42,514 nt of DNA from an uncultured Candidatus Bathyarchaeia archaeon (GTDB lineage Archaea; Thermoproteota; Bathyarchaeia; Hecatellales; Hecatellaceae), in the NCBI GenBank assembly GCA_964484995.1, contig CAZAHF010000003.1, positions 4,400 to 46,913 of the forward strand. Direction: 5' to 3'. Position numbers and translations under genes: made by a program. Below the pieces are notes generated by a model. The model was not told the origin of the DNA. It saw only the letters and a program-made list of their open reading frames with translations, and ran no database searches. This document shows, in pieces, positions 11,280 to 40,605 of the stretch. The stretch's first letter is position 1; each line of letters starts with the position of its first letter.

Positions 11280-11284
11280 AAAAA

Positions 11285-12097: not shown

Positions 12098-12528
12098 GCT
12101 TTCTTCTTAACCTCTACAGTCCCATCAGAAAAAATTTTTACCCAATCTCCAGTTCTAATAACCTCTAAAGGATTCTTATTTAACCTATCTACAAGTGGAA
12201 TGTTTGCTAAAGCACATCCAACAGCAATAATTGCCTCAGTTTTTATGTTTAATATGGCTGATGGGGCTGTACCATGTTTAGCCATGGCATAAAGCACATA
12301 AGAACCTACACTACTTCCCTTTCCATAGGGAAAAACAAGAACTTTTCTAGCTACGTTTTTCCCGTTTAACTCATGGTTTTTCTCAATAATCAAACCAGTT
12401 TTAGGGTTAACTCCACCAAAAAAAGATATAGGTTGACTTGTTACTAATGCTTCTCCCTCAACCTCTTTTGAAAGAAGGTTTCTACCCTTTAGAAGAATTA
12501 ACATTAAACGGTAATCCTCCTTAAACAT
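12094..12528 (-). CDS. Phosphomevalonate dehydratase small subunit (AcnX swivel, DUF126)
   Basis: ISFFGGVNPKTG, FPYGKGSSVGSY, IAVGCALANIP; start may be the ATG at 12504. Confidence 0.9.
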   Translation of the reverse strand: MFKEDYRLMLILLKGRNLLSKEVEGEALVTSQPISFFGGVNPKTGLIIEKNHELNGKNVARKVLVFPYGKGSSVGSYVLYAMAKHGTAPSAILNIKTEAIIAVGCALANIPLVDRLNKNPLEVIRTGDWVKIFSDGTVEVKKKA

Positions 12529-13709: not shown

Positions 13710-13735
13710 AAAACGTTAAACCTCAATAGCTTCTT

Positions 13736-23924: not shown

Positions 23925-24013
23925 AAGTACCGAGACAAAACGTTAAAAGCTAGCTGCTACACAATTATTATATCCAAAAAACCTTATATTCTACATTTTT
24001 GGTTGGTGTAAAA

Positions 24014-24997
24014 ATGCCAAAACTTCCAGATGTACCTCTAACTGAAGAAGAACTTATTGACATGTACCAGAAAATGCTTACCATAAGAATGTTTGAGGAA
24101 AAAGCCTATGAACTTTTTACAAAAGGCTACATTCCAGGGGCAATTCATAGTTCTGTAGGTCAAGAAGCTGTTGCTGTTGGAGGTATTGCAGCCATAAGAA
24201 AAGAAGACTATGTTTTAGGTTCTCATAGGGGACATGGCCACTGTATTGCTAAGGGTGGAGATCCGAAAAGGATGATGGCTGAACTTTTCGGTAAGGCAAC
24301 AGGTTATTGTAAGGGTAAAGGCGGCTCTATGCATATCACCGACCCTAAGGTAGGACATCTAGGAGCAATAAGTATAGTTGGCGCCCAAATACCAATAGCT
24401 GTTGGTGTAGGCTTATCGATTAAGCTAAGAAAAACAGACCAAGTTTGTCTTTGTTTTTTTGGGGATGGTGCAGCTAACCAAGGAACTTTTCATGAAGGGT
24501 TAAATCTCGCATCTCTATGGAAGCTTCCAGTAATATTTATTTGTGAAAACAATCTTTATGCAGTAACAGTTCATGTTTCTAAATCTACCTCAGTAGAGAA
24601 TATAGCTCAAAGAGCTGTAGCATACAATATGCCTGGCGTAGTTGTTGACGGTATGGATGTTATAGCAGTCTATAAGGCTGCTTCTGAGGCTGTTAAAAAA
24701 GCAAGAAATGGGGAGGGACCTACACTTATAGAATGTAAAACCTACAGGTATTACGGCCATTCTAGAGGCGATCCTCCCTACGGTCCCTATAGAAAAAAAG
24801 AAGAATGGGAGGAGTGGAAAAGAAGAGACCCAATACCAAGGTTTAGAAGCATCCTAATAGAAAACAATGTTTTAACCGAGGAGGATGATAAGAGAATCCA
24901 GCAGAATGTTGTTAACCTTATTGAAGAAGCTGTTAAATTTGCTTTTGAAAGTCCAAATCCTTCACCTGAGGATGCTTTTAAAGATATTTATGTGTAG
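24014..24997 (+). CDS. TPP-dependent dehydrogenase E1 alpha, copy 1 (acetoin/pyruvate DH family)
   Basis: GQEA, SHRGHGH, GKGGSMH, GDGAANQGTFHE...ENN, YRYYGHS; ATG at 24014 preferred over track start 23999 (GGTG SD upstream). Confidence 0.93.
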   Translation: MPKLPDVPLTEEELIDMYQKMLTIRMFEEKAYELFTKGYIPGAIHSSVGQEAVAVGGIAAIRKEDYVLGSHRGHGHCIAKGGDPKRMMAELFGKATGYCKGKGGSMHITDPKVGHLGAISIVGAQIPIAVGVGLSIKLRKTDQVCLCFFGDGAANQGTFHEGLNLASLWKLPVIFICENNLYAVTVHVSKSTSVENIAQRAVAYNMPGVVVDGMDVIAVYKAASEAVKKARNGEGPTLIECKTYRYYGHSRGDPPYGPYRKKEEWEEWKRRDPIPRFRSILIENNVLTEEDDKRIQQNVVNLIEEAVKFAFESPNPSPEDAFKDIYV

Positions 24998-25006
24998 GTG
25001 TGGTTT

Positions 25007-25984
25007 ATGGTAAGAGAAATAGCCTATTTTGAGGCTCTTAGAGAAGCTTTAAGAGAAGAAATGTTAAAGGATGAAACTGTTTTTGTTATGGGGGAAGACA
25101 TAAAGCTTGGATACATTTTTGGTGTTACAAGAGGACTTGCTGAAGAGTTTGGTGAAGAACGTGTTAGAGACACACCAATATCAGAAAATACTCTTGTAGG
25201 AGCTGGTCTTGGTGCAGCAATAACAGGAACAAGACCTGTTGTTGAAATTATGTTTGCAGACCTTCTATGTTTAGCTATGGATCAGCTGGTAAACGAAATT
25301 GCAAAACTAAGATACATTACCGGCGGCCAAATTGAAAAAATACCTTTAGTTGTAAGAACACCTTTAGGTGTTTGGAAAGGTTATGGTGCAACCCACTCTC
25401 AGTCTCTTGAATCCTGGTTTGTTCATGTTCCAGGTTTAAAGGTTGTTATCGTGTCAACCCCCTACGATGCTAAAGGATTACTAAAATCTGCGATAAGAGA
25501 TGACAATCCTGTCCTTTTCTTTGAACATAAATCTCTTTACAGGATGACAGGACCTGTTCCAGAGGAAGAATATCTAATACCGCTTGGAAAAGCCGATATT
25601 AAAAGAGAAGGTGAAGATGTAACTATCATCAGTTATGGGTTAATGTTACATCGCACCCTTTCAGCTGCAAAAAAGCTTGAGGAGGATGGGATAAACGTTG
25701 AGGTTGTTGACCCCAGAACTCTTTTTCCTCTTGACCTTAAAACAATTTTAGATTCTGTCAAAAAAACTGGAAGACTTGTAATTGTGGAGGAAGACTGTAA
25801 AACTGGAGGGTTTGGTGCTGAGATTGCAGCTAGGGTTGTTGAGGAAGCCTTTGACTTTTTAGATGCCCCTATTAAACGAGTTGCAACTCCAGATGTACCA
25901 ATACCATTTAGTCCTGTTCTTGAGGAAGCTGTTCTTCCAAAAGAAGAAGATATAGTTAAAGCTGTAAAGGAAGTTGTTTTATAA
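25007..25984 (+). CDS. E1 beta, copy 1
   Basis: DTPISE, EIMFADL, GATHSQS, FFEHK, VVDPRTL; ATG 25007 preferred (GGTGTGG SD). Confidence 0.93.
   Translation: MVREIAYFEALREALREEMLKDETVFVMGEDIKLGYIFGVTRGLAEEFGEERVRDTPISENTLVGAGLGAAITGTRPVVEIMFADLLCLAMDQLVNEIAKLRYITGGQIEKIPLVVRTPLGVWKGYGATHSQSLESWFVHVPGLKVVIVSTPYDAKGLLKSAIRDDNPVLFFEHKSLYRMTGPVPEEEYLIPLGKADIKREGEDVTIISYGLMLHRTLSAAKKLEEDGINVEVVDPRTLFPLDLKTILDSVKKTGRLVIVEEDCKTGGFGAEIAARVVEEAFDFLDAPIKRVATPDVPIPFSPVLEEAVLPKEEDIVKAVKEVVL
25658..25832 (+). repeat. Direct repeat copy A (shared with 31304-31478)
   Basis: Exact runs of 65 bp (25658-25722), 43 bp (25740-25782) and 21 bp (25812-25832) at constant offset 5646. Confidence 0.92.
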
Positions 25985-26005
25985 GCTTTAAAAAATATTT
26001 TTGGT

Positions 26006-27232
26006 TTAGAGAACTCTATCTAAAAGTTCTGTAACATCATACATAGACATTTTTGAGTTCAAATTTTTTATAGCGTCTGTAAGGTTTCTATAGCAGAACG
26101 GACATGAGGAGACTAAGACATTACATCCTGTTTTTTCAGCTTCACGTATTCTTTCAGCAGCTAACCCTAATGACTGTTCTGTAAAACCTGCTCTTAATCC
26201 TCCTCCTGCTCCACAACAAAAAGCATTTAGTTTAACTCTATCCATCTCAACAAGCTCAACACCAGGTATATTTTTTAGAATTTCTCTTGGCTGATCTGCA
26301 ACCATAGCGTTTTTGCCAAGATGAGCTAGATGTCTTACAAGATGACATGGGTCATGGTAGGTTACTTTCATCTTTAATTCTTTTGTAATTTTAAGTTTAC
26401 CCTCCTTAATTAGTTGACTTAAAAATTCTGTGATGTGTAGAAGGTTAAAGTTTAGTTTGCCAAAAATTTCTTGGTAATCGGTTTTAAATGTTCGATAACA
26501 TCCTGCACATGAGAAAACAACAGTTTTAGCTCCAACCTTCTCTATTGCTTCAATGTTATGTTTAGCTTGTTCTTCACCAATTTCACGTGCACCAACTCTA
26601 AACAATGGGGAGCCACAACACCATTCCTCTAACCCAAGAATTGTAAAGTTTACTCCAAGCTTTTTTAATATGCTAACAGTTGCTTTAGCTATGTTTTTTT
26701 GACGGTAAGATGAGGTGCATCCAACATAGTAGACTATATCCGCGTTTTCCATAGGTTTAATATTAAATTCTTCAGGAAGCCAATCAAGCCTCTTATTATG
26801 AGGCTCTAGGTATGGGTTATGGTTTTGTTTTGTCCACTCAGCAAACCGTTTATGTTGAGGTAAACCAAAACCCATGGAAAATAGGTCTGCCCTAAAAGCC
26901 TCATATATTCCCACATGGTCTATATGGTCTTTAACATAACATTTATCCCAACAGTTTCGACATGTAGAACACATATAGAATATTTCAGAAATTCTTTTTC
27001 CCGTCTCCTCATTTATAGGGAGAAGTCCTTCTAAAACTGCTAAGGCTATTTCTACCTTACCTCTAGCCTCAAAGCTTTCAAACGGGTGAGCCTCCGTGAT
27101 ACGTAAGGGACATACACCATCCACATTATCTCTAAAACGAGTTTGGTCTCTACAATAACCACACTTTATACAGCGGTAAAGGTCTTTTTCATATTTTTTT
27201 AAATGTTTTAGTTGAGCTGCTGTTTCACCCAA
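26006..27232 (-). CDS. GlcF/HdrD-like (Fe-S)-binding protein with two CCG domains
   Basis: CIKCGYC...CP, CSTCRNCWDKC, CCGSP, CAGC, HDPCH, CCGAGGG, CPFC. Confidence 0.92.
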   Translation of the reverse strand: MGETAAQLKHLKKYEKDLYRCIKCGYCRDQTRFRDNVDGVCPLRITEAHPFESFEARGKVEIALAVLEGLLPINEETGKRISEIFYMCSTCRNCWDKCYVKDHIDHVGIYEAFRADLFSMGFGLPQHKRFAEWTKQNHNPYLEPHNKRLDWLPEEFNIKPMENADIVYYVGCTSSYRQKNIAKATVSILKKLGVNFTILGLEEWCCGSPLFRVGAREIGEEQAKHNIEAIEKVGAKTVVFSCAGCYRTFKTDYQEIFGKLNFNLLHITEFLSQLIKEGKLKITKELKMKVTYHDPCHLVRHLAHLGKNAMVADQPREILKNIPGVELVEMDRVKLNAFCCGAGGGLRAGFTEQSLGLAAERIREAEKTGCNVLVSSCPFCYRNLTDAIKNLNSKMSMYDVTELLDRVL

Positions 27233-27235
27233 ACT

Positions 27236-28675
27236 TTAAACCTCCATTGGAAGCATCATCATTCCAGGGATTAGAATTCCGTTTGGGTCTAACGTCTTCT
27301 TTAAAGCCTTTAATGTTTCATAGTATTGTTTAGACCAGTGGCGTGCAACCAGCTCTCCAACAACACTTCCAAGCCAATAATGGATTCCACCATCCTTAAC
27401 AAGCACCTCAAAACCTTCCCTCCACATTTTTCTAACAACCTCACGTGCACCTGGGATATCGTCAAGCCAATAGATAAGAAGCATAGCATCAACCACATTC
27501 CAACTAACAACAAAATATAGGACATCAACAGGTTCTATCTGATACTTTTCACATTCACCTTTATACTTTTCAAAAAGCTGTTTCATCAAGTTATGAGGTC
27601 TAACATAATCATAAATTGGAACTTTTGCACATAGAGAAGCCCATCTTTGACCTTTAGGTCCTGCTCTTGGCCACCACTCAAAAATTCTTGGATAATAGTA
27701 ATATTTTAAAAATTCAGTACCAATTTCTTTTACACCAGTCTTTTTAACCATACTATTTACGTATTCAGCTTCTGTATCAGCTAGTTTTTCGTTTGATGCT
27801 TCAATAACCACGTGAAGAGTATACTCTTTACCTAACAAAGATTTAAAACCAGCTTTTCCAAGCGACTCATTAAGCCATGAAAGAAACCCCATTATTTCAG
27901 TTGGAATATGGGTTTTTGAAACTTCATAGGTTGCGTCAAGCAGCTGTTTAAGGTCTTTTGCTTCATAAGACAAAAATCTGACAGCTTCAGGGAAGGGATA
28001 AATCTTCATAACCGCCTGAGTTTTAACACCAAAAACTCCACAATCTCCAAGAAAAAGACCGGTAAGGTCAGGGCCTATCCCATATCTTATAAGCTTTTTT
28101 GCATGGGGATAAGCTCCAGAACCAGTATTTATTATCTCTCCTGTTGGCAGGACAACCTCTAGACTTTTAACGTTTTCACTTACAGTTCCATATTTTGCAC
28201 ATCCATAAGCTAAACTATGGTGGGATAACCCTCCACCAATAGTTGCTGAGGCTCCACTACCAGGACCAAGAGAACCAACTCTCCAACCCTTTTTTCTAAG
28301 TTCCGAGTAGAGTTTAGCCCATGTTGCACCACACTGAACAGTAACAGTCATCTCTTTTTCATTAATTTCAACTATATCACTCATTCTTGTAAGGTCTAAA
28401 ACTATTGCACCTTTCTGGTATTTTGTAAAATAAGCAGGACAAGTTCCTCCTCCTCTAGGAACAACAGACTTCTTAACCTTATTAGCCTCTTTAACTATTT
28501 CAGCTACCTCTTCAGTTGTTTTTGGGCGAACAACCATATCCGGTATAACTGGCGGTTCAGGGCTTATGTCGTTTGCATAAGCAATAAGATCAGGAAGCGA
28601 GGTTGTTACATATTTTTCCCCTACTTTTGAAGCAATAATTTGAACAAACTCGTCTAACATTTTCTCACTAGACAT
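27236..28675 (-). CDS. FAD-linked oxidoreductase (GlcD/VAO superfamily)
   Basis: RPKTTEEV, PRGGGT, ATIGG, LEVVLPTGEI, GPDLTGLF, C-terminal LDPNGILIPG. Confidence 0.9.
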   Translation of the reverse strand: MSSEKMLDEFVQIIASKVGEKYVTTSLPDLIAYANDISPEPPVIPDMVVRPKTTEEVAEIVKEANKVKKSVVPRGGGTCPAYFTKYQKGAIVLDLTRMSDIVEINEKEMTVTVQCGATWAKLYSELRKKGWRVGSLGPGSGASATIGGGLSHHSLAYGCAKYGTVSENVKSLEVVLPTGEIINTGSGAYPHAKKLIRYGIGPDLTGLFLGDCGVFGVKTQAVMKIYPFPEAVRFLSYEAKDLKQLLDATYEVSKTHIPTEIMGFLSWLNESLGKAGFKSLLGKEYTLHVVIEASNEKLADTEAEYVNSMVKKTGVKEIGTEFLKYYYYPRIFEWWPRAGPKGQRWASLCAKVPIYDYVRPHNLMKQLFEKYKGECEKYQIEPVDVLYFVVSWNVVDAMLLIYWLDDIPGAREVVRKMWREGFEVLVKDGGIHYWLGSVVGELVARHWSKQYYETLKALKKTLDPNGILIPGMMMLPMEV

Positions 28676-28677
28676 TT

Positions 28678-29481
28678 TTACCTTCCCTTAAACTCTGCTT
28701 TTCTCTTCTCTAAGAAGGCTTTGCATCCTTCAATACGGTCTTCAGTTGCAAACATTATTGTGTCAGCTTCACTCTCGTAGGCTAATCCTGTATCTAAATC
28801 TGTTTCTAAGCCTCTAACTATAGCGGCTTTAGCTAAAGCTAAAGCAATAGGGCTTTTACTCTTAAGTTTTTCAACAAGCTCATTTACAGCTTCATCAAGT
28901 TTATCTGGTGGAACAACCTTATTTACAAGACCTATTCTTTCAGCCTCTTTTGCACTAATTCTTTCTCCAAGCAAAATTAGCTCCATACCTTTTATTTTTC
29001 CAACTAAACGTGGAATTCTCTGGGTTCCACCCCAACCCGGAAATATTCCAAGATTAATTTCCGGTACACCAAATTCAGCGTTCTCAGAGGCAATTATAAA
29101 GTCGCATGCAGCTGCTATTTCAAGTCCTCCACCAAGACAATAACCGTTAACAGCAGCAATAACAGGTTTATCAAGTTTCTCAATTAGACGGTGCACCTCA
29201 TAACCAATATTTCGGAAAAATTTTCTAGCCTTAATTGGATGATCCATCACATCCGGTAAGAATACTTTTATGTCTGCACCTACACAAAATGCTCTACCTT
29301 GACCTGTTATAACAACAACTCTTACACTGTCATCTTGCTGAGCATCCCATAAAGCATCTTTTAAGGCTTTAGCAACATCAAGGTCTATAACCCAAAGTCC
29401 TTTAGGACCTCTATTAAAAACTATTTTTGCAACACCATCTTTTTTCTCATAAATTATTGGAGGTTGTTTTTCTTCTCCCAT
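28678..29481 (-). CDS. Enoyl-CoA hydratase (crotonase family)
   Basis: [32 protein letters not shown] (both catalytic Glu present); ATG 29481 preferred over GTG 29496. Confidence 0.93.
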
Positions 29482-29671
29482 AAAATTCTCCCTCACACAG
29501 GCTAAAGACGACTTTTACTGTTTTATGATAAGTTTTTAGATTATTAACTTTTTCTTAAGACTAGGAAAACTTTACAAAAATTAAACTATAAAGGTTTATT
29601 TATGAAAAAGTTAAATACTCATCATCAAGAGTAAAGTTTGTAACATAAAAATTAGAACTGGAGGATGTTCT

Positions 29672-30625
29672 ATGAATCTTAATAAAAACACATTAATCGA
29701 AATTTACCGGAACATAGTCTTGCTAAGAAAGCTTGATGAAAAGCTTATTGAGCTTTTTACAGCGGGAAAAGTGCCTGGATGGATTCATCCGTATGTTGGT
29801 CAGGAGGCTGTTGTTGCAGGGGTTGCTCCACATGTAAGAAAGGATGACTTTTTTTGTGCAACCCATAGAGGTCGAGCTGTCCATGTTCTTAAGGGAACAC
29901 CACTAAGAAAGTTTGTGGCTGAACTTCTAGGTAAAAAAACCGGTATTAATAAGGGGCGAGCTGGTGAAATGCATGTAATGAACTGGGAGGTTCACTCTGT
30001 TTCTTCAGGTATTGTTGGTGCAACTTTCCCTATGGCTGTAGGGTTTGGTATTGCATGTAAACTTGAAGGTGGAGATAAAATTGTTTTTTGTACTTTTGGA
30101 GATGGTGCATCAAACAGAGGAACTTTTCATGAGTCTCTAAATATGGCTTCTGTTTGGAAGCTTCCAATAGTTTTTATTTGTGAAAACAATCTTTATGCTC
30201 AGTTTACCCCATCTAAACTAACAACCTCTGTTTCGGATATAGCTAAAAGGGCTTCTGCCTACAATATGCCTAGTACAATTGTGGATGGAATGGATCCTAT
30301 AGCCGTATATGAGGCTGTTGGTGAAGCTGTGGAAAGAGCACGTAAAAGAGAAGGACCTACACTTGTAGAATGTAAAACCTATAGGTATCATGGGCATTTT
30401 TATGGTGATAAGTGGGAAACTTACCGAAGCCCTGAAGAGGTTGAGGCTTGGAAGAAAAAGGATCCTGTAATAACGTTTAAGGAAAGATTGTTAAAGGATG
30501 GTGTTTTAACAGAAAAACTTGTTGAAGAAATTTATAATGATGTTAATAGTCAAGTTGAAGATGCTTTAAAATTTGCTTTTGAAAGCCCTGAACCATCTCC
30601 TGAAGATGTTTATGAGGATTTATAG
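29672..30625 (+). CDS. TPP-dependent dehydrogenase E1 alpha, copy 2
   Basis: GQEA, THRGRA, GEMH, GDGASNRGTFHE...ENN, YRYHGHF. Confidence 0.93.
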   Translation: MNLNKNTLIEIYRNIVLLRKLDEKLIELFTAGKVPGWIHPYVGQEAVVAGVAPHVRKDDFFCATHRGRAVHVLKGTPLRKFVAELLGKKTGINKGRAGEMHVMNWEVHSVSSGIVGATFPMAVGFGIACKLEGGDKIVFCTFGDGASNRGTFHESLNMASVWKLPIVFICENNLYAQFTPSKLTTSVSDIAKRASAYNMPSTIVDGMDPIAVYEAVGEAVERARKREGPTLVECKTYRYHGHFYGDKWETYRSPEEVEAWKKKDPVITFKERLLKDGVLTEKLVEEIYNDVNSQVEDALKFAFESPEPSPEDVYEDL

Positions 30626-30640
30626 TGGAGGTGAGTATGT

Positions 30641-31621
30641 TTGGGTAAAAAAACTATAGCCTATATTGATGCTATTCGTGAGGCTTTACGGGAGGAAATG
30701 CTTAGAGACCCGAAAGTGATAGTTATAGGTGAAGATGTAGGGCTTGGTCAAGGAGCCTTCACGGTAACAAAGGGTCTCTACCAAGAATTTGGTAAAGACA
30801 GGGTGATAGATACACCTATCTCAGAAGAATCTATTATTGGTGCTTGTGTTGGTGCAGCTATGGCTGGTTTAAGACCAGTAGCAGAAATAATGTTTAACCC
30901 GTTTATGGCTTTGGTTATGGATCCGCTAATTAATCATGCATCATGCTATAAGTATGTTTCAGGTGGACAGGTTAAGGTTCCTATGGTTATTCGAACTCTA
31001 GTTTGTCAAGGTAGAGGAGCAGGACATGATCATGCTCCATTTTATGCGTCGTGGTTTATGCATGTTCCATGTATACGGGTTATTGTTCCTTCAACCCCAT
31101 ATGATGCTAAAGGTTTACTTAAAACGGCTATTCGAGATGATTATCCATGTATATTCTACGAGCATATAGACTTTTATCCAAGAAAACCAAACCTAGGTGA
31201 AATTCCGGAGGAGGAGTACACAATTCCTCTTGGTAAAGCTGACATTAAAAAGGAGGGGTCAGATGTTACAATAGTAGCTATCTTAACTGGTGTTAAAACC
31301 TCACTTTCAGCTGCAAAAAAGCTTGAGGAGGATGGGATAAACGTTGAGGTTGTTGACCCCAGAACTCTAGCACCCCTTGATAAGCAAACAATTTTAGATT
31401 CTGTCAAAAAAACTGGAAGACTTGTAATAGTTGAAACAGACTTTAAAACTGCTGGTGTTGGTGCTGAGATTGCAGCTATAGTTGCTGAGGAAGCTATGGA
31501 ATATTTGGATGCACCGATTAAACGGGTTGCAACAGCAGACATTCCAATATCCTTCACCAACGAAAAATACATTTTACCAAACGAAGAAGCAATAATTAAG
31601 GCTGTTAAAGATATATGTTAA
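30641..31621 (+). CDS. E1 beta, copy 2
   Basis: DTPISE, EIMFNPF, GAGHDHAP, IFYEH, VVDPRTL. Confidence 0.93.
   Translation: MGKKTIAYIDAIREALREEMLRDPKVIVIGEDVGLGQGAFTVTKGLYQEFGKDRVIDTPISEESIIGACVGAAMAGLRPVAEIMFNPFMALVMDPLINHASCYKYVSGGQVKVPMVIRTLVCQGRGAGHDHAPFYASWFMHVPCIRVIVPSTPYDAKGLLKTAIRDDYPCIFYEHIDFYPRKPNLGEIPEEEYTIPLGKADIKKEGSDVTIVAILTGVKTSLSAAKKLEEDGINVEVVDPRTLAPLDKQTILDSVKKTGRLVIVETDFKTAGVGAEIAAIVAEEAMEYLDAPIKRVATADIPISFTNEKYILPNEEAIIKAVKDIC
31304..31478 (+). repeat. Direct repeat copy B (shared with 25658-25832)
   Basis: Exact runs 31304-31368, 31386-31428 and 31458-31478. Confidence 0.92.
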
Positions 31622-31664
31622 GTAAACCCTGCCCCGGTTTAAAATTGTTTGGAGGAAGAAAATC

Positions 31665-32858
31665 TTGCATGAAGTTACAATGCCAAAGCTTTCTTTAACA
31701 ATGGAAACTGGAAAGATAGTAAGATGGCTTAAAAAAGAAGGAGATAAAGTGGAGAAGGGGGAACCTATACTTGAAATTGAAACAGAAAAAGTGACAGTAG
31801 AAGTTGAGGCGCCAGCCTCAGGAATACTACATAAAATACTTGCAAAAGAGGGTGAGGATGTTCCAATACAAAAAACAATAGCAATTATAAGAGAACCTGG
31901 AGAAGAAATACCTGAAGAGGTTGCTGCTCCACCCGTGGAAGCTAAAAAACCTGAGGTTGTTGCTGTAACAGAGAAACCTCTGGAAAGGATAAAAGCTTCC
32001 CCACTTGCAAAAAAACTTGCTAAAGAGTATGGAGTAGACCTTACAAAAATTAAGGGTACAGGTCCTGGTGGTAGAATTGTTAAAGAAGATGTTTTAAGAG
32101 CTGTTGAGGAAGCTAAAGCTGCAGCTGTCACGGTTACACCAACCCCAACTCCTGTTACTGTTGAAAAAGCTAAGGTTGTACCCTTAACAAGTATGAGAAA
32201 AACAATTGGAAGACGTATGGCTCAAAGTCTTCAAACAGCCCCCCAGCTAACTATAACAATGGAGGTAGACATGAGTGAAGCTGTAAAGTTTAGAGAACAA
32301 ATAACGTCAGTAACAGAAAAGAAACTGAATCTTAGGGTTACCTACACGGATATTATAGTTAAGGCTGTTGCTAAAGCACTTAAAGAATTTCCATTTATAA
32401 ATTCAAGACTTGAAGGAGATCAACTTAAACTTTTAGAGGAGGTTAATGTTGGTGTAGCTACAGCAGTAGAAGACGGGTTGGTTGTTCCTGTGGTTAAAAA
32501 TGCTGATAAAAAGTCTCTGATAGAAGTAGCCTCAGAAATTAGAAGTTTGGTTGAAAAAGCTAGACAGGGTAAGCTTTCCATAGAGGATGTTTCTGGCGGA
32601 ACTTTCACGGTTACAAATCTTGGTATGTATGGTGTTGATGTTTTTACACCTATTATTAACCCACCAGAAAGCGCAATTCTTGGAGTTGGAAGAATAGTTG
32701 AAAAACCTGTTGTTATAAATGGTCAGATAACAATCCGACCACTAACTGTTCTTAGTTTAACCTTTGACCATAGAGTTACAGACGGTGCTCAAGCAGCAGT
32801 TTTCCTACAAAGAGTTAAAGATCTCTTAGAAAAACCCGCCTTACTCTTTATTGAGTAG
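31665..32858 (+). CDS. Dihydrolipoamide acyltransferase E2 (one lipoyl domain)
   Basis: Lipoyl-Lys ETEKVT, PSBD ASPLAKKLA...GTGPGGRI, catalytic FDHRVTDG. Confidence 0.95.
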   Translation: MHEVTMPKLSLTMETGKIVRWLKKEGDKVEKGEPILEIETEKVTVEVEAPASGILHKILAKEGEDVPIQKTIAIIREPGEEIPEEVAAPPVEAKKPEVVAVTEKPLERIKASPLAKKLAKEYGVDLTKIKGTGPGGRIVKEDVLRAVEEAKAAAVTVTPTPTPVTVEKAKVVPLTSMRKTIGRRMAQSLQTAPQLTITMEVDMSEAVKFREQITSVTEKKLNLRVTYTDIIVKAVAKALKEFPFINSRLEGDQLKLLEEVNVGVATAVEDGLVVPVVKNADKKSLIEVASEIRSLVEKARQGKLSIEDVSGGTFTVTNLGMYGVDVFTPIINPPESAILGVGRIVEKPVVINGQITIRPLTVLSLTFDHRVTDGAQAAVFLQRVKDLLEKPALLFIE

Positions 32859-33720
32859 TTTTTTCTAAAAATTTTTTTGAGAACTCTACAGCCATAAAAG
32901 AGCTTCTTACAAAAGGAGCTGAGGCTACATATAAAAATCCGAGCTGATAAGCCTTTTTCTTATACTCCTCAAACTTTTCTGGTTTTATGTATTCTTTAAC
33001 CTCTAAGTGTTTTTTTGATGGACGTAAATATTGGCCTATAGTAAAAATGTCGCAGTTTACTGAACGTAAATCCTTCATAACCTGAAATACTTCTTCGTCT
33101 GTTTCACCTAAACCAACCATTATACCAGACTTAGTAAAAATTTTTGGGTTTAGCTTTTTTATTTTTTCTAAAACCCTTAGTGAAGTTTTATAAGATGCTT
33201 TCGGTCTTACAATCGGGTAAAGTCTCGGAACAGTTTCAAGATTATGGCCTATAATATCAGGTGAAACATCCACAATTTTTTTAATACACTCATCTGAACC
33301 CTGAAAATCTGGAATTAAAACTTCTACTCTAGTGTTCGGGTTTAGCTTTTTTATCTCCTCTACTGTTTTAACAAACTGGTTTACACCAAAATCTTCCAAG
33401 TCATCACGTGTAACAGAAGTTATAACAACATGTTTTAGTCCAAGTCTTCTAACAGCCTCAGCTACATGTTTTGGCTCTTCTGGATCTGGAGGTAGAGGAT
33501 TACCTTTAGTTACATTACAGAATTTACAGTTTCTTGTACATATGTTTCCAAGGATTAGGAAGGTTGCTGTACGGTGAGCATAACAAATACCAATATTTGG
33601 GCATGCTGCATTCTCACAAATAGTGTGAAGAGATAAATCTTTAAGTAAGTTTCTCATCTCCTGAAGAACCTTTTGATCTGGAATTCTAGTCTTAATCCAC
33701 TCTGGCTTTTTAACACTCAT
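32848..33720 (-). CDS. lipA: Lipoyl synthase
   Basis: KKPEW, CENAACPNIGIC (CX4CX5C), CTRNCKFC, C-terminal VRSS. Confidence 0.96.
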   Translation of the reverse strand: MSVKKPEWIKTRIPDQKVLQEMRNLLKDLSLHTICENAACPNIGICYAHRTATFLILGNICTRNCKFCNVTKGNPLPPDPEEPKHVAEAVRRLGLKHVVITSVTRDDLEDFGVNQFVKTVEEIKKLNPNTRVEVLIPDFQGSDECIKKIVDVSPDIIGHNLETVPRLYPIVRPKASYKTSLRVLEKIKKLNPKIFTKSGIMVGLGETDEEVFQVMKDLRSVNCDIFTIGQYLRPSKKHLEVKEYIKPEKFEEYKKKAYQLGFLYVASAPFVRSSFMAVEFSKKFLEKTTQ

Positions 33721-34420
33721 AAATGGTTTTCACCAACAATTCCTCTAAACTAACCCTTTTTACTTTAACATCAAAAGTTTCAGCAAAATACTTGACATAT
33801 TTCTTTTTTACCTCTAAAACTGAAATTTCTCTTCCAAGAACTTCAGCCATGGAGGTAACATCTTTCCCTACCAAACCACATGGTACAATCATTTTAAAAT
33901 ACTTCATGTTTGGGTTTACATTCAAAGCAAAACCATGTTTTGTAACCATGGATTTAACCCTAATTCCGATAGCTGCAATCTTTTTATTTTTAACCCAGAC
34001 TCCAGGAAAACCTTTAACTATCTCAGCATTCAATCCATACTCTTCTTTTAACATTTTTACAATGGACTCTTCAAGCTTCCAAACATAGCTGTGTATATCC
34101 AAACCGTAGCTTTTAAGGTCTAGGATTGGATATCCAATAAGCTGTCCAGGTCCATGATAGGTAACATCACCACCTCTGTCAACCCTATAAACCGCTATTC
34201 CCTTCTTTTTTAACTCTTCAACTGAAACAAGAATGTTTGAGAAGTTCCCACCCATACCAACAGTGAAAACCGGATGATGTTCTAAGAGCATCAAAACATC
34301 TTTTATCTTCTTTTTAAATCTATCCTCCCAAAATTTTTCTTGAAGATTTAAAGCTTCTTTATAGTCTATCAAACCTAAGTCTAGTAGGTAACACTCATTA
34401 AAGGTTTTTTCTTCCGCCAC
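33710..34420 (-). CDS. lipB: Lipoyl(octanoyl) transferase
   Basis: LLEHHPVFT, DRGGDVTYHGPGQL, KIAAIG, HGFALNV, IVPCG. Confidence 0.95.
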   Translation of the reverse strand: MAEEKTFNECYLLDLGLIDYKEALNLQEKFWEDRFKKKIKDVLMLLEHHPVFTVGMGGNFSNILVSVEELKKKGIAVYRVDRGGDVTYHGPGQLIGYPILDLKSYGLDIHSYVWKLEESIVKMLKEEYGLNAEIVKGFPGVWVKNKKIAAIGIRVKSMVTKHGFALNVNPNMKYFKMIVPCGLVGKDVTSMAEVLGREISVLEVKKKYVKYFAETFDVKVKRVSLEELLVKTIYEC

Positions 34421-34569
34421 CTAAATCAGCCTTCTGCTACTTTAAAGTTAAATGAAGCTTTTCAAAGGTTTGAGGATTAGCATTGTTTTTAAGTTTTAGG
34501 TTAACCAAAAAATATACATCAAAGTAAAAAGATAATCTTTAAGTTAAAGAGTTTTTAAACCCAAGAAAT

Positions 34570-35988
34570 TTGGGGGAGGGTATAACAATTAGTGTTGTAG
34601 AAAAAAATACTGATCTAACAGTTATTGGGGCAGGACCTGGAGGATATGTTGCTGCAATAAGAGCAGCTCAACTTGGTGGAAAAGTTGTTTTAGTTGAAAA
34701 AGAGGAAGTTGGAGGAGTATGTTTAAACAAGGGATGTATACCAACTAAAACCCTTCTAAGAACAACTGAGCTTTTAACCCTACTTGGTAAAGCAAAAGAT
34801 TTTGGGGTAAATATAGACAGTTGGTCTGTCAACTTTAAAAAAATGTTGGAAAGGAAGAATCAAGTTGTTAAAAGGCTTGTTATGGGTGTAAAAACTCTCT
34901 TAAAAAGAAATGGTGTAGACCTTGTTTATGGTTCTGCTCAAATAGTAAAATCTGGTGAAATTAAGGTTTTAAGAAATGATGGTGGTAAGGAAGTTCTTAG
35001 GTCAAGGAAAATTATAGTTGCTACAGGCTCTAAACCAGCAAAACCACCTATTCCAGGTGTAGACACTACTGGCGTCTTAACTAGTGATGAGGTTTTTAAG
35101 CTTGAAGTTCTTCCTCAAAGTCTTCTGATTGTTGGTGGTGGCCCTGTTGGGTTAGAGTTTGCTCAAATTTTTTCTAGTCTTGGTGTTGAGGTTACAGTTG
35201 TTGAGATGCTTCCTCATCTACTACCAAACGAGGATGAAGAAATTGGTTTAATGCTTCATAAAATTATGGAAAAAAACGGTGTAAAAGTTTTTGTAAACAC
35301 AAAAGTGACAAAAATAGGTGGAGAAAAAGATGAAAAACAAGTTTATCTTTTAGGTAAGAGTGGTGAGGATATTAAAAAAGCTGAAAAGGTTCTTTTAGCT
35401 GTTGGAAGAACACCAAACATTGAAGGTTTAGGTTTAGATTCAATCGGTGTAAGCTTTGATAAACGTGGAATATCGACAAACAACAAGATGGAAACAAATG
35501 TTTCAGGGGTTTATGCGATAGGCGATGTAGCAGGAAAGTTTTTGCTTGCTCATACAGCCTCAGAGGAAGGTGTTGTTGCCGCTGAAAATGCTTTAGGCTA
35601 TGAGCGTAAAATAAATTATCGTGCAGTTCCAAGATGTGTTTTTACTGTTCCTGAGGTTGCTTGTGTAGGGTTAACTGAAAAACAGGCTAGGGAGGCTGGT
35701 TATAACCTTAAAATCGGGAGATTTCCGTTTTTAGCAAGTGGAAGAGCTTTAACCATGGATGAGACAGACGGCTTTATAAAAGTTCTTGTTGACGGTGATA
35801 CTGACGAAATTTTAGGTGTTCATATTATTGGGCCTTTAGCCTCAGAACTAATTCCTGAAGCTGTTTTGGCTATAAACCTTGAAGCAACAACAAAAGAAAT
35901 TATTGACACAATCCATGCCCACCCAACCTTAGCCGAAGCCTTAAAAGAAGCAGTCTTAGATGCTGAAAAAAGAGCAATTCACAAATAG
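34570..35988 (+). CDS. lpdA: Dihydrolipoamide dehydrogenase E3
   Basis: GAGPGGYVAA, GGVCLNKGCIPTK redox disulfide, C-terminal HAHPTLAE. Confidence 0.96.
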   Translation: MGEGITISVVEKNTDLTVIGAGPGGYVAAIRAAQLGGKVVLVEKEEVGGVCLNKGCIPTKTLLRTTELLTLLGKAKDFGVNIDSWSVNFKKMLERKNQVVKRLVMGVKTLLKRNGVDLVYGSAQIVKSGEIKVLRNDGGKEVLRSRKIIVATGSKPAKPPIPGVDTTGVLTSDEVFKLEVLPQSLLIVGGGPVGLEFAQIFSSLGVEVTVVEMLPHLLPNEDEEIGLMLHKIMEKNGVKVFVNTKVTKIGGEKDEKQVYLLGKSGEDIKKAEKVLLAVGRTPNIEGLGLDSIGVSFDKRGISTNNKMETNVSGVYAIGDVAGKFLLAHTASEEGVVAAENALGYERKINYRAVPRCVFTVPEVACVGLTEKQAREAGYNLKIGRFPFLASGRALTMDETDGFIKVLVDGDTDEILGVHIIGPLASELIPEAVLAINLEATTKEIIDTIHAHPTLAEALKEAVLDAEKRAIHK

Positions 35989-36000
35989 AAACCTAAAACT

Positions 36001-36438
36001 CTAAATTTTAAAAAGATTTAACCCTGTAACCTCATCATATTCTCTTTCAAGAACAATATTCTTAACTTCTAGAAGAAACATTTCAGCTGAAAAAATTGTT
36101 GTTCCCTCATCTAAATGGCCTCCAAAAGTTTTTCCTTCTTTATCTCCAAGAACAAGATGAACATGAGCCATAATTTTACCCTTAAACTTTGAAATATTCC
36201 CTATACATGAAAGAATTTCTAGGGGAAAATCTAAACTAATTTTTGAATATTTTTTCTCCTTTTGGTTATAGTATTTTACCACAGCTTTTCTTACAGCTCC
36301 AACAACCCATAAAACTCCAGCTTCAACTCCTACTTTTTCAGCAAAATCTTCTATTGACTTTAAAAGGTCACCATCAGTTGGAAGTCTAACAACAAAAATT
36401 CTCCCTAATGCTCCCTCAAAAGATTTAGTCACAGTCAT
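36001..36438 (-). CDS. PPC/DUF296 domain protein
   Basis: VRLPTDGDLL, EILSCIGNI, AHVHLVL, GGHL. Confidence 0.9.
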   Translation of the reverse strand: MTVTKSFEGALGRIFVVRLPTDGDLLKSIEDFAEKVGVEAGVLWVVGAVRKAVVKYYNQKEKKYSKISLDFPLEILSCIGNISKFKGKIMAHVHLVLGDKEGKTFGGHLDEGTTIFSAEMFLLEVKNIVLEREYDEVTGLNLFKI

Positions 36439-36593: not shown

Positions 36594-37631
36594 TTGTTTA
36601 GTGGATGTTATACAGCCTTAATAACCCCTATGAAGAAAAACATGGAAGTAGATTTTGAAGGACTAAAAAGTCTTGTTGAATTTCAAGTAAAAGAAGGGGT
36701 TTCAGGAATCCTAGCTACAGGAACAACTGGTGAAAGCCCAACATTAACGTGGGATGAGCATGAAAAGGTTATTGAAAAGGTTTATGAGTATACTGGTGGA
36801 AGATGTGTAACCATAGCTGGAACAGGAAGCAATAACACTCAGGAAGCCTTAGAGGCTACAAGACATTCATGGGATTTTGGTGTAAAAAACTTTCTGCTTG
36901 TAGACCCATACTATAACGGGCCAAGTTCTCTTGAAATAAGAAAAGAATATATTGAACCTATAGCAAAAAGCTTTCCAGAAGCTCAAATAATTCCATACAT
37001 AATCCCTGGAAGAACTGGAACCCAGCTTCTCCCTCATGATCTGGCAATTCTTCATAAAACACTTCCAAACGTTAACGCTGTAAAAGAGGCTACTGGAAAC
37101 TTTGAAAACATGAAGCTTATAAGAAAACTTTGTGGATCTGACTTTGATATTCTTTCTGGTGATGATGATAAAACCTATCAGATGATTTTAGACCCGGAAA
37201 TTAATGCTAGCGGAGTTATCTCTGTAACCTCAAATGTAGCTCCTAAAGCTGTTCAAGAATTTGTTGAAGCTTTAAGAACCAGAAACCTTGAAAAAGCTAA
37301 TAGACTTCAGGAAGCTCTTAAACCTCTATTCCAGATAGTTACTGTTAAAACTGAGGAAGAATCTGGTTTTGGAACCGTTTCATGTAGAGCTAGAAATCCT
37401 TTACCCTACAAAGCCTTAATGAATATTCTTGGGATGCCAGCAGGCCCATGTAGACCGCCTTTAGGTAAGCTTACCAAAAAAGCTTTAAACGTTATTCTAA
37501 ACCAAATAAAAATGGTTTATGAAAAAAACCCGGAAATTTTGCAGCCTATAGAGTCCTTTTTTGATGTTAAACTTGAGGAAAGGTTAAACAACAAAAGGTA
37601 TCTTGAGGGATTATACTATGACAGATATTAG
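36594..37631 (+). CDS. dapA: 4-hydroxy-tetrahydrodipicolinate synthase (long form)
   Basis: GTTGESPTL, IAGTGSNNT, PYYN, Schiff-base AVKEATG; first gene of dap operon. Confidence 0.92.
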   Translation: MFSGCYTALITPMKKNMEVDFEGLKSLVEFQVKEGVSGILATGTTGESPTLTWDEHEKVIEKVYEYTGGRCVTIAGTGSNNTQEALEATRHSWDFGVKNFLLVDPYYNGPSSLEIRKEYIEPIAKSFPEAQIIPYIIPGRTGTQLLPHDLAILHKTLPNVNAVKEATGNFENMKLIRKLCGSDFDILSGDDDKTYQMILDPEINASGVISVTSNVAPKAVQEFVEALRTRNLEKANRLQEALKPLFQIVTVKTEEESGFGTVSCRARNPLPYKALMNILGMPAGPCRPPLGKLTKKALNVILNQIKMVYEKNPEILQPIESFFDVKLEERLNNKRYLEGLYYDRY

Positions 37632-38427
37632 GATTTGTGTTGCTGGTGCTACTGGTAGGATGGGCAGCACCCTGATAAGGGAGGCTTTAAACAAGGGAGG
37701 ATTTGAGATTGTTGGTGCTGTTGCTGCACCAAACGAGGAAACAGTAGGTAAAACTCTTTCTGAACTTGGGATTGCAAACCTAAACCTAAAAGTTGTTGGT
37801 GCAGATAGGTTAGAACAAGCCTTAAAGGATGCTGAAATCTATCTAAGTTTTACAACTCCTCAAGCTGAGGTTTCAAACATCCCTATAGTTGCTAAACATG
37901 GAATAAAAATTGTTATGGGAACAACAGGTTTAAACGATGAGCAGAAAAGAATTGTTGAAGATGCTGTTAGAGGGAAGGTTCCAGCTATCTTCTCCCCAAA
38001 CTTTTCTCTGGGTGTAAACATCCTTTTTAAGATTATAAGTCAACTATGTAAAATTCTTCCAGCTGACTACGACATAAGCATAATTGAAGCGCATCATAAG
38101 GGTAAGGTTGATGCTCCAAGTGGAACAGCAAAAAAAATTGTGGATATAGTTTCTTCTATTAGAGGATACAAAGAAAAAGTTTATGGTAGGGTTGGAGTTA
38201 GCAAAAGAAAACCAGAAGAAATTGAGGTTTTTGCTGTTAGAGGTGGAGGTATTCCAGGTATTCATGAATTGGTGGTTGCAGGTCCACATGAAATAATAAA
38301 AATTGAACATTTAGCCTTCTCAAGAAGTGTTTTTGCTCAAGGAGCGCTTTATGCAGCTGAATGGCTGTATAAGCAGAAGGAGCCTAAAATATACAGTATG
38401 GAGGATTTGCTTGAAAACCCACTCTAA
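37618..38427 (+). CDS. dapB: 4-hydroxy-tetrahydrodipicolinate reductase
   Basis: GATGRMG, GTTG, SPNFSLGV, EAHHKGKVDAPSGTA; ATG 37618 preferred over track start 37603. Confidence 0.95.
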   Translation: MTDIRICVAGATGRMGSTLIREALNKGGFEIVGAVAAPNEETVGKTLSELGIANLNLKVVGADRLEQALKDAEIYLSFTTPQAEVSNIPIVAKHGIKIVMGTTGLNDEQKRIVEDAVRGKVPAIFSPNFSLGVNILFKIISQLCKILPADYDISIIEAHHKGKVDAPSGTAKKIVDIVSSIRGYKEKVYGRVGVSKRKPEEIEVFAVRGGGIPGIHELVVAGPHEIIKIEHLAFSRSVFAQGALYAAEWLYKQKEPKIYSMEDLLENPL

Positions 38428-38445
38428 CCCTTTTTTGGTGGTTAG

Positions 38446-39729
38446 ATGAGAATTTCCGGGGTGTTTGAAGGGAGAGGTGGAACCCTTTATATTGATGGTG
38501 TTTCAAGCTTAGAATTAGCTGAAAAGTATGGTACTCCACTATATGTTTTAAGTGAAAAAAGGATTAGAGAAAACTATAGGCGTCTTTATAGAGCTTTAAG
38601 TCTTAACAGCAAAAACTTTAGAATTTACTATTCTGCAAAAGCAAACACAAATCTTTCAGTTTTAAAGATTCTTAGGGATGAAGGAGCCTATGTTGACACG
38701 GTAAGTCCTGGAGAAGTTTTTTTAGCCTTAAAAGCTGGTTTTCCCTCTGAAAAAATTCTTTTTACCGGAACAAGTGTTAAAGATGATGAGCTTAGCTTCC
38801 TTGTAAACTTAAACATCCCTATAAATGTTGACTCATTATCTCAGCTTAAAAGACTCCTAAAAATTAAAACTCCAAAATTTTTGTCTTTTAGAGTTAATCC
38901 TCAAGTAGAAGCGGGACATCATCAACACTGTATAACTGCTGGAAAAAATTCGAAGTTTGGTTTTTGGGAAACCGATGTTGTTGACGGCTATAGGATAGCT
39001 TTAAAGGCTGGAGTAGAAAAGTTTGGGATACATATGCATATTGGTTCAGGAATCCTGGAGGTGGAACCCTTTATATTGGCTATAAAAAAACTTTTAACCA
39101 TAGCTAAAAAGGTTCATGAGGAAACTGGTATAACTTTTGAGCTTATAAATATTGGTGGTGGACTTGGAATTCCATACAAACCAAACGAAAAAGAATTAGA
39201 CTTAACTCTTTTCTCAAATAATGTTTTTGGTTTTCTAAATAGAATGGTTAGGGAGTATGGTTTAGGGGAGCCTGTTCTTTGTATTGAGCCTGGAAGATAT
39301 ATTGTGGGAGATGCAGGGATTCTTTTAACAAAAGTAAACACTGTAAAGGTTACTCCATACAAGAAGTTTGTTGGTGTTGATGCTGGTTTTAATATGCTTA
39401 TAAGACCTGTAATGTATGGTTCCTACCACCATATAGTTGTAGCTAATAAGCTGGATTATCCGGTTGAGGAGACCTATGATATTGTTGGTCCTTTATGTGA
39501 GTCCGGAGATTTTCTTGCTAAAGATAGAAGATTACCAAAAATTGAAGAGGGAGACCTTTTAGCTGTTATGGATGCTGGAGCCTACGGATACGTTATGAGT
39601 TCCCAGTATAACTCAAGACCAAGGGGTGCTGAAGTCTTGGTTATGGATGGGAAACATGAGCTTATTAGGAAAGCTGAAACTTTAGAAGATTTGCTTTTAG
39701 GACAAAAAATTGCAAGCTGGTTAACTTAA
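38446..39729 (+). CDS. lysA: Diaminopimelate decarboxylase
   Basis: YSAKAN (PLP Lys), HMHIGS, GGGLG, EPGRY, CESGD, SQYNSRP. Confidence 0.96.
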   Translation: MRISGVFEGRGGTLYIDGVSSLELAEKYGTPLYVLSEKRIRENYRRLYRALSLNSKNFRIYYSAKANTNLSVLKILRDEGAYVDTVSPGEVFLALKAGFPSEKILFTGTSVKDDELSFLVNLNIPINVDSLSQLKRLLKIKTPKFLSFRVNPQVEAGHHQHCITAGKNSKFGFWETDVVDGYRIALKAGVEKFGIHMHIGSGILEVEPFILAIKKLLTIAKKVHEETGITFELINIGGGLGIPYKPNEKELDLTLFSNNVFGFLNRMVREYGLGEPVLCIEPGRYIVGDAGILLTKVNTVKVTPYKKFVGVDAGFNMLIRPVMYGSYHHIVVANKLDYPVEETYDIVGPLCESGDFLAKDRRLPKIEEGDLLAVMDAGAYGYVMSSQYNSRPRGAEVLVMDGKHELIRKAETLEDLLLGQKIASWLT

Positions 39730-39758
39730 CAGAAAAAAGGGGAAGAGGTGTTTGGTTC

Positions 39759-40592: not shown

Positions 40593-40605
40593 AGGTGGTT
40601 CTGCT

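Follow-up and report, generated by a model that had tools for sequence, protein, structure and literature searches.

The locus considered here raises the question of what a complete lipoate-dependent 2-oxoacid dehydrogenase (OADH) complex, encoded beside a crotonase and a flavoprotein/iron-sulfur protein pair, might do in an anaerobic archaeon. It occupies positions 24014-36438 of a 42.5-kb stretch (42,514 nucleotides; contig CAZAHF010000003.1 of assembly GCA_964484995.1), which is called the window throughout and to which, unless another locus is named, all coordinates refer. The window is archaeal, since it encodes an archaeal elongation factor 2 (aEF-2), a short XPF nuclease, and an archaeal mevalonate-pathway set. 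Its EF-2 is 80-82% identical to those of Ca. Hecatella orcuttiae and Ca. Hecatellaceae (Bathyarchaeia), and by sequence the host is a Hecatellales-related Bathyarchaeon. Hecatellales are described as anaerobic, Wood-Ljungdahl-based, and chiefly geothermal (PMC9635834). Lipoylation of archaeal OADH complexes, in contrast, is reported to track aerobiosis (PMC3904984), and in archaea such complexes are seen as an aerobic marker. The present one, complete and accompanied by LipB and LipA, stands in a lineage of Wood-Ljungdahl-type anaerobes.

Domain content and gene order indicate that the region encodes a complete lipoylated OADH of the alpha2beta2-E1 type (E1a2/E1b2, E2, and LpdA) together with LipB and LipA, with E1 alpha and beta, E2, E3, and a lipoylation route all present by domain and cutoff criteria. 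Within it lies a six-gene core, defined as a crotonase-FAD-CCG operon (FAD, a flavin adenine dinucleotide-binding flavoprotein; CCG, an iron-sulfur protein with CCG domains) divergent from E1a-E1b-E2. The linkage of this core is real, conserved, and beyond chance, and known types of enzyme are probably combined here into a catabolic route that has yet to be characterised. Our tentative reading, to which we give somewhat less than an even chance, is that E1-2 (E1a2/E1b2) with E2 and E3, the FAD/CCG pair, and the crotonase form one coupled catabolic route, in which a further E1 pair, E1-1 (E1a1/E1b1), shares E2 and E3.

The gene map was drawn from the list of open reading frames (ORFs) together with Pfam and NCBIfam scans (Table 1). 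All twelve genes agree in order, strand, and family with a preliminary description of the same DNA, and start-codon coordinates likewise bear out its two divergent spacers, one of 190 nt (crotonase ATG at 29481 to E1a2 ATG at 29672) and one of 149 nt (lipB at 34420 to lpdA at 34570). The crotonase, FAD, and CCG genes, of which the crotonase is first and the CCG gene third, lie 2-3 nt apart, a packing that indicates one transcript, while lipB and lipA share an 11-nt overlap. Both E1 pairs carry PF00676, PF02779, and PF02780, with GDGA(A/S)N...ENN invariant in the alignment; for E1b1, the ATG at 25007 is possibly the true start. E2 has a lipoyl domain with ETEK, a peripheral subunit-binding domain (PSBD), and DHRVTDG, and LipA, LipB, and LpdA all score above the NCBI curated cutoffs.

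Table 1. Features of the locus, in window coordinates (ThDP, thiamine diphosphate; PDH, pyruvate dehydrogenase)
Feature	Position	Strand	Evidence and remarks
E1 alpha-1 (E1a1)	24014-24997	+	Canonical PDH-type, predicted ThDP-dependent; PF00676 E=1e-96; TIGR03182 398.3 bits
E1 beta-1 (E1b1)	24998-25984	+	Transket_pyr + Transketolase_C; NF006667 381 bits (cutoff 321)
Gene-conversion tract in E1b1	25658-25834	+	Codons ~221-279, Transketolase_C domain; common to E1b2
CCG/2x[4Fe-4S] protein, HdrD/GlpC/TfrB-like	26006-27232	-	PF02754 CCG (2 stretches), PF13183
FAD_binding_4 flavoprotein, VAO/PCMH superfamily, GlcD/LDHD-like fold	27236-28675	-	PF01565 E=3e-38
Crotonase, short-chain enoyl-CoA hydratase	28678-29481	-	PF00378 E=1e-65
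Divergent spacer, crotonase operon/E1a2-E1b2-E2	29482-29671		190 nt, AT-rich
E1 alpha-2 (E1a2), divergent E1 alpha	29672-30625	+	PF00676; TIGR03182 328.7 bits, under cutoff
E1 beta-2 (E1b2)	30641-31621	+	PF02779 + PF02780; reciprocal conversion tract ~31304-31480
E2	31665-32858	+	PF00364, PF02817, PF00198; ETEK lipoyl-lysine motif, DHRVTDG
LipA lipoyl synthase	32848-33720	-	TIGR00510 414 bits (cutoff 310)
LipB octanoyl/lipoyl transferase	33710-34420	-	TIGR00214 175 bits (cutoff 84); NF010925 196 bits (cutoff 155)
LpdA, E3 dihydrolipoyl dehydrogenase	34570-35988	+	TIGR01350 580 bits (cutoff 409); Pyr_redox_2, Pyr_redox_dim
PCC/DUF296 protein	36001-36438	-	PF03479

The evidence that carries the linkage is its recurrence. 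Besides contigs of the window's own lineage (L001 and L095, at 99.6-99.9% nucleotide identity, L095 being an independent metagenome contig at 99.6%), a sister lineage at ~80% nucleotide identity (L002, L003, L004, and L094) is collinear with window positions 15251-38725, and the island proteins of L002 and L094 are 72-94% identical to those of the window. In a more distant lineage (L005 and L006) the island proteins are 55-72% identical and the six-gene core is kept, with fully different flanks in L005, where a KaiC-like ATPase and an HTH protein stand on one side and a thermosome gene on the other. Because the arrangement recurs in L095 and in L002/L094, and its core in L005/L006, it is not a matter of chance. 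The preliminary description would have been undermined if the crotonase, FAD, and CCG genes never accompanied E1-2 elsewhere; they do so in two further lineages, including this divergent one with other flanks. The crotonase has 94% identity to its L002 counterpart and 72% to that of L005, and E2 is 88% identical to that of L002, 66% to that of L005, and 57-61% to mainstream E2 proteins of Bathyarchaeia. Only a few contigs yielded exact or near relatives of the island, and the clade is rare, with no close relative in the species-representative genome collection. In two samples, the window's lineage and its ~80% sister lineage occur together (L001/L004 in SRR6823441 and L094/L095 in Ga0180301).

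The conserved core is, however, narrower than the island previously proposed, consisting of crotonase-FAD-CCG plus E1a2-E1b2-E2. Adjacency of lipA, lipB, and lpdA is seen only in the window's lineage and its ~80% sister; it is absent from L005 and from mainstream operons, so that the inclusion of these genes in the island could not be upheld. The PCC/DUF296 gene, also found in L002/L094 and missing from L005, is a conserved neighbour without any sign of belonging to the system. Co-regulation of the divergent operons had likewise been suggested, with adjacency as its sole ground, and the spacers yielded no usable evidence of a shared operator. Partly conserved blocks do exist between the window and L094, yet these genomes are ~80% identical throughout and the L005 spacer is interrupted by a gene; an operator derived from the spacer alignment was dropped for these reasons. 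A scan for sigma-70 promoters and terminators gave 37 sites against 30.5 expected, which is no enrichment, and its bacterial consensus is inapplicable to an archaeal host.

A further argument for a dedicated system comes from the E1 enzyme that is tied to the core. Between E1-1 and E1-2, identity is 51% for the alpha and 60% for the beta subunits. In a neighbor-joining tree of 125 E1 alpha sequences, E1a2 and its counterparts from L002 and L005 form one clade (98 of 100 bootstraps) apart from ~120 mainstream Bathyarchaeia E1 alpha proteins, whereas E1a1 is basal, its exact placement not being fixed. Against the PDH E1 alpha equivalog TIGR03182, with a cutoff of 393.85 bits, E1a2 (328.7), L002 (324.9), and L005 (364.6) all fall short, while E1a1 (398.3) lies above the cutoff and mainstream copies score 392-418. 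Identity to mainstream Bathyarchaeia E1 alpha is ~50% for E1a2 and 61-66% for E1a1. In the alpha subunit, the E1-2 clade has PGW(I/V)HP where human PDH has GFCHL, G-R-x-G-(E/D)-M-H in place of the GKGGSMH of mainstream proteins, E1-1, and human PDH, and GH(F/Y)YG in place of their GHS. In the beta subunit, HA(P/K) replaces the HSQ of mainstream proteins and E1-1 adjoining the catalytic His, and the stretch after the ThDP-activating Glu, canonical in mainstream proteins and E1-1, is altered. These substitutions are common to all three members of the clade, and the ThDP motif and catalytic histidines are kept. The substituted positions presumably line the active-site channel, as in the human and Geobacillus PDH structures. 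E1-2 thus appears, from its sequence, to be a catalytically competent E1 with changed specificity, and the E1-2/E2 module is likely to have branched off, as a specialised form, from the "PDH-like" E1ab-E2 operon found across Bathyarchaeia. The possibility that E1-2 would prove to be an ordinary PDH, raised in the preliminary description, is disfavoured by its separate clade, by predicted remodelling of the active site in both subunits, and by scores below the NCBI PDH model cutoff.

Attempts to type the two E1 pairs by annotated plasmid genes (tblastn) were abandoned, as the identities do not discriminate: E1a2 is 41-45% identical to annotated bacterial E1 alpha proteins of any type, and E1a1 is nearest to pdhA (~53%). 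Mainstream operons yielded a separate observation, namely an NAD-dependent D-isomer 2-hydroxyacid dehydrogenase gene just upstream of E1a-E1b-E2 in two lineages (L089 7620-8534 and L100 6644-7579). The L089 operon comes from the same assembly as L002 and was considered as belonging to the L002 organism, an assignment that was rejected on GC content (40.6% vs 38%) and tetranucleotide correlation (r 0.76 vs 0.996).

E1-1, on the other hand, is a variable accessory pair of the canonical PDH type. E1a1 keeps GKGGSMH and GHS, E1b1 keeps the canonical THSQS, and the pair has no E2 of its own. It constitutes the only large indel relative to the collinear L002/L094 (window 23925-25986 vs L002 12676-12782), a 108-nt spacer standing in L002 where the window holds E1a1-E1b1, and no repeats, target-site duplications, or mobile-element marks were found at the indel junctions. 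Nevertheless, it is not a recent arrival, because it has undergone gene conversion with E1b2. The two beta genes are 86-89% identical in nucleotides over a tract (E1b1 25658-25834, E1b2 31304-31480) and 48-72% elsewhere; the tract identity exceeds that between E1b2 and its L002 ortholog there (80-85%), and the tract shares derived residues absent from L002, L005, and L089. Identity and derived residues together point to gene conversion between E1b1 and E1b2. The tract lies in the C-terminal domain, which we take, by analogy with the Geobacillus stearothermophilus PDH, to be the part that binds the PSBD of E2. Two E1 pairs accompanied by a single E2/E3 and a lipoylation gene also occur, independently, on an unrelated high-GC (65%) contig (L101 7430-16176), which carries E1ab, a kinase-like gene, and E1ab-E2-E3-LipB, without FAD/CCG or crotonase genes. 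Given the lack of a second E2, the conversion in the presumed E2-docking domain, and the layout of L101, it is plausible that both E1s share one E2/E3. The earlier picture of two interchangeable E1s therefore stands as far as sharing goes, and has to be revised in that E1-1 is an accessory absent from the collinear sister lineage.

The flavoprotein has a FAD_binding_4 domain and the two-domain GlcD/LDHD fold. By sequence, solved structures match its FAD domain only, whereas its AlphaFold 2 model (predicted local distance difference test score 80.7) has mouse LDHD as the best fold match in Foldseek, with a template modelling (TM) score of 0.75-0.8. Both fold and profile searches (E=1e-43, full length) place it nearest to the D-2-hydroxyacid dehydrogenases LDHD and LctD, with vanillyl-alcohol dehydrogenases, PCMH, and AGPS scoring only slightly below. 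On the strength of the modelled fold, a 2-hydroxy acid is our best guess at its substrate. Its nearest named homologues are mostly from Asgard archaea, which at first spoke against a bathyarchaeal host, but EF-2 settled the placement within Bathyarchaeia. The partner protein consists of an N-terminal 2x[4Fe-4S] ferredoxin domain and two CCG domains, with CCG/CxxC motifs present; its best NCBIfam model is TfrB (231 bits vs 385), the TfrB, GlpC, GlcF, and LdhH equivalogs are all below cutoff, and its PDB matches are HdrB and 9ojn, an "iron-sulfur-binding reductase". In a survey of 80 loci with flavoprotein homologues from species-representative genomes (at most 40% identity over full length), the CCG gene follows the FAD gene in most loci, which come from Asgard archaea, Bathyarchaeia, other Thermoproteota, Thermoplasmata, Desulfobacterota, Chloroflexota, and others. 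Distant relatives of the flavoprotein also include natural fusions of ~900 aa, about twice its length (P0400, P0409, P0422, and others), most of them with canonical EHGxG.

The crotonase is, judging from its sequence, a typical short-chain hydratase. It has the ECH_1 fold with GGGLE and GVPE motifs that include both catalytic Glu residues, the roles of which are assumed here from rat enoyl-CoA hydratase. Its top solved homologue is the Metallosphaera 3-hydroxypropionyl-CoA dehydratase (5zai), followed by clostridial crotonase, and it reaches the cutoff of no NCBIfam model (e.g., 264 vs 394).

In the proposed route, the flavoprotein/CCG pair would oxidise a 2-hydroxy acid or related alcohol and pass the electrons via its CCG clusters to an acceptor of the thiol/disulfide or quinone type. 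Next, E1-2 would decarboxylate the resulting non-pyruvate 2-oxo acid onto lipoyl-E2, E2 would release the acyl-CoA, and E3 would make NADH. The crotonase would act later on the same CoA-ester route, with intervening steps encoded elsewhere, and E1-1, as a canonical pyruvate-type accessory E1, would dock on the same E2/E3. Gene identities, motifs, linkage, the E1 clade, and the variability of E1-1 are observed components of this route, to which substrates, direction, electron acceptor, and E2 sharing are added as conjecture. Several observations fit a hydroxyacid-to-oxoacid-to-acyl-CoA logic, albeit weakly. A deltaproteobacterial locus (L042) has FAD-CCG-crotonase beside a LarA-type 2-hydroxyacid racemase gene; an NAD-type 2-hydroxyacid dehydrogenase gene lies upstream of some mainstream E1abE2 operons, as described above; and acyl-CoA ligase, acetoacetate decarboxylase, and thiolase genes occur near distant FAD-CCG pairs. 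The last of these are weak hints, drawn from 21 distant loci, in which they appear five, three, and two times, respectively. In Archaeoglobus fulgidus, a low-homology Dld-like pair is the only lactate-induced candidate (PMC3949148). At L042 (5247-14860), where the FAD-CCG-crotonase adjacency is independent of that in the window, the order is CCG, DUF169, DUF169, CCG, FAD, CCG, and crotonase, with the racemase gene on the opposite strand.

A number of findings weigh against such a route, beginning with the catalytic motifs of the flavoprotein. GEHG(I/V)G is replaced by (I/V/T)HYWLG, GDGNxH is absent, and His405 of LDHD, the sole position at which the wild-type and H405A PDB sequences differ, has no counterpart. 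The flavoprotein was compared with 8jdc/8jdb by profile and with canonical homologues by MAFFT, and no His falls in the segment equivalent to GDGNxH; alignment confidence in the GDGNxH/EHG region is low. Canonical homologues in the locus set keep both GDGNxH and GEHGxG, motifs that are missing from most of the archaeal "GlcD" proteins partnered with HdrD-like ones. An exhaustive search gave 2,219 representative clusters that match the flavoprotein at E<=1e-30, and HYW(L/M/V)G occurs in only 7 of the best 150; by its sequence the protein belongs to a small "HYWLG" subfamily without the canonical catalytic His/Glu motifs. Since these motifs are absent and the glcD model TIGR00387 is matched at only 130 bits against a cutoff of 567.9, 2-hydroxyacid oxidation is not established, and the lactate or hydroxy-compound oxidation earlier ascribed to the FAD/CCG enzyme has the fold as its one support. 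Neighbourhoods elsewhere also count against the route: E1, E2, lipA, or lipB lies beside FAD-CCG in none of the 80 surveyed loci, and an adjacent crotonase gene only in L042. Within the 42.5-kb window there are no acyl-CoA dehydrogenase, thiolase, or 3-hydroxyacyl-CoA dehydrogenase genes, so that a saturated acyl-CoA derived from E2 could not reach the crotonase by island genes alone; "self-contained", as the island had been called, thus applies to the OADH complex and its cofactor and fails for the pathway. Moreover, the divergent spacer of L005 holds an additional PNPOx-like gene, lipA, lipB, and lpdA are not adjacent there, and the linkage is known from only three lineages of one clade, in which shared ancestry explains part of it.

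One rival explanation, rather unlikely in our judgement although it has to be taken seriously, is that three ordinary modules have simply been juxtaposed by inheritance: a housekeeping pyruvate or branched-chain OADH, a GlcD/HdrD-type dehydrogenase, and a crotonase of the beta-oxidation or butyrate type. Mainstream Bathyarchaeia E1abE2 operons lack FAD, CCG, and crotonase neighbours, the ~80 FAD-CCG loci without OADH neighbours span many phyla, and the neighbours of distant pairs are heterogeneous. The locus with the next-nearest flavoprotein (L007, 45% identity), which is the nearest outgroup, also has FAD-CCG without crotonase or OADH genes, and both lipAB/lpdA and E1-1 are variable. However, simple juxtaposition does not readily account for a six-gene core that survives rearranged flanks at a protein divergence of 55-72% identity, for a linked E1 that forms a separate remodelled clade instead of the housekeeping type, or for crotonase, FAD, and CCG genes spaced as a single transcript.

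Alternatively, E1-2/E2/E3 could be an acetoin- or acyloin-cleaving (Aco-type) system, with the flavoprotein oxidising a diol to the acyloin. The best annotated bacterial matches of E1a2 are generic "ThDP-dependent E1 alpha" proteins, including one encoded on an Enterococcus plasmid in an operon that also has an AcoR-like sigma-54 regulator, E1a2 is below the PDH equivalog cutoff, and VAO-family enzymes are commonly alcohol oxidisers. We nonetheless consider this improbable, as the 41-45% identity to bacterial E1 alpha is no better than for other types, no AcoR-type regulator or AcoX gene is present in the window, and a crotonase has no role in acetoin catabolism. A different function for the crotonase operon would be to supply the octanoyl donor of LipB. 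The usual donor is octanoyl-acyl carrier protein (ACP), and archaea are not known to make ACP-bound octanoyl groups. This donor puzzle has been raised for other archaea too, in which LipB and LipA imply an endogenous octanoyl source (PMC3904984), and CoA-based reverse beta-oxidation independent of ACP might provide one in an archaeon lacking that protein. Although the crotonase gene is clustered with lipB and lipA in the window and L002, such a role seems extremely unlikely: the crotonase operon of L005 accompanies E1abE2 and not lipAB, the cluster has no thiolase, hydroxyacyl-CoA dehydrogenase, or enoyl-CoA reductase, and a VAO-type flavoprotein is without precedent in this function.

A further reading, highly improbable in our estimate, is that electrons pass directly between the CCG subunit and the dihydrolipoyl/lipoyl group on E2, giving the OADH an NAD-independent outlet or inlet. 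An organic substrate processed together with the crotonase would then be reduced or oxidised in a step coupled to oxidative decarboxylation. By analogy, the sHdr-LbpA sulfur-oxidation system is the only precedent for coupling of this kind, as it shows HdrB-like CCG proteins working with lipoate-carrying proteins (PMC6067878). Genes for HdrA, HdrC, and a single-domain LbpA were not found in the window, and the CCG protein of the window differs in being HdrD/GlpC-like and paired with a VAO-type flavoprotein. If true, this reading would represent a new anoxic mode for a lipoate-dependent complex and a function for non-canonical "GlcD/HdrD" pairs.

Compared with known systems, the locus is built of familiar kinds of enzymes and is under-described, not unprecedented. 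Thermoplasma acidophilum Ta1435-1438 and Haloferax volcanii oadhAB1-3 likewise have an alpha2beta2-type E1, an E2 with a single lipoyl domain and PSBD, and E3. In contrast to those OADH systems, the present host is of an anaerobic Wood-Ljungdahl lineage (PMC9635834), and the E1-2 clade is tied to a crotonase/flavoprotein/CCG operon, an association unreported for them. Several E1 paralogs exist in Haloferax, some without an E2 of their own, and their substrates are unidentified (PMC8305020); the combination of LipB, LipA, and E2 is known in Thermoproteales (PMC3904984). The mainstream Bathyarchaeia "pyruvate dehydrogenase" E1a-E1b-E2 belongs to the same families (50-68% identity), and E1-1 is of this mainstream type. 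Those operons have their own E2 and a conserved housekeeping context (YchF-like GTPase, prenyltransferase, DUF373); unlike the window, they have no FAD/CCG, crotonase, lipAB, or lpdA genes nearby, and E1-2 falls in a separate clade. E1ab-E2 operons are widespread in Bathyarchaeia, yet the literature searched hardly mentions OADH complexes for this group. This scant coverage, together with the link of archaeal OADH complexes to aerobiosis, leaves the system under-described.

With regard to the redox pair, the GlcD/HdrD (Dld-II type) pairs of Bathyarchaeota, Methanomethyliales, Archaeoglobus, and sulfate reducers show the same architecture of FAD_binding_4 followed by 2x[4Fe-4S] + 2xCCG. They are widely co-located and of uncertain role in non-methanogens (PMC6421429), and coupling of lactate oxidation to heterodisulfide or quinone reduction has been proposed (PMC6421429; PMC3949148). 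The window flavoprotein departs from these pairs in its HYWLG motif, the loss of GDGNxH, its low glcD score, and its co-transcription with a crotonase gene, as indicated by gene spacing. Mammalian LDHD and Acetobacterium LctD, its best fold and profile matches, are only ~22% identical to it; the His405 equivalent and the Glu-His of EHG are not conserved, and its partner is a CCG protein and not Etf. What is new is a dedicated, remodelled E1/E2 clade tied to a crotonase and a non-canonical GlcD/HdrD pair in an anaerobic lineage of archaea, along with recombination between this E1-2 and a PDH-type E1 of accessory status. The clade offers a handle on the substrates of "orphan" archaeal OADH E1 paralogs and on the role of non-canonical GlcD/HdrD pairs, and because the dedicated E1, the flavoprotein/CCG pair, and the crotonase are kept together, a few recombinant proteins can be screened as a set. 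Should the substrate prove new, a catabolic route would be added to the carbon-cycling repertoire of a highly abundant group of sediment archaea.

The remainder of the window includes several other gene groups. A compact archaeal-type mevalonate cluster (10290-15076) contains mevalonate kinase, a UbiD-family decarboxylase, an amino-acid-kinase-family gene that is probably an isopentenyl phosphate kinase, and AcnX small and large subunits that are probably a phosphomevalonate dehydratase. A cytoplasmic molybdopterin oxidoreductase (17727-19775), conserved in L002, has formate dehydrogenase alpha as its top match (443 bits vs a cutoff of 666). Scans of the window for tRNA genes and Rfam families gave no matches. 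Directly downstream of the island, a lysine (diaminopimelate) operon (36594-41784) comprises dapA, dapB, lysA, dapF, and a DapL-like class I/II aminotransferase; it is also present in L002, and in L007 dapF and the aminotransferase gene lie ~9 kb from the FAD-CCG pair.

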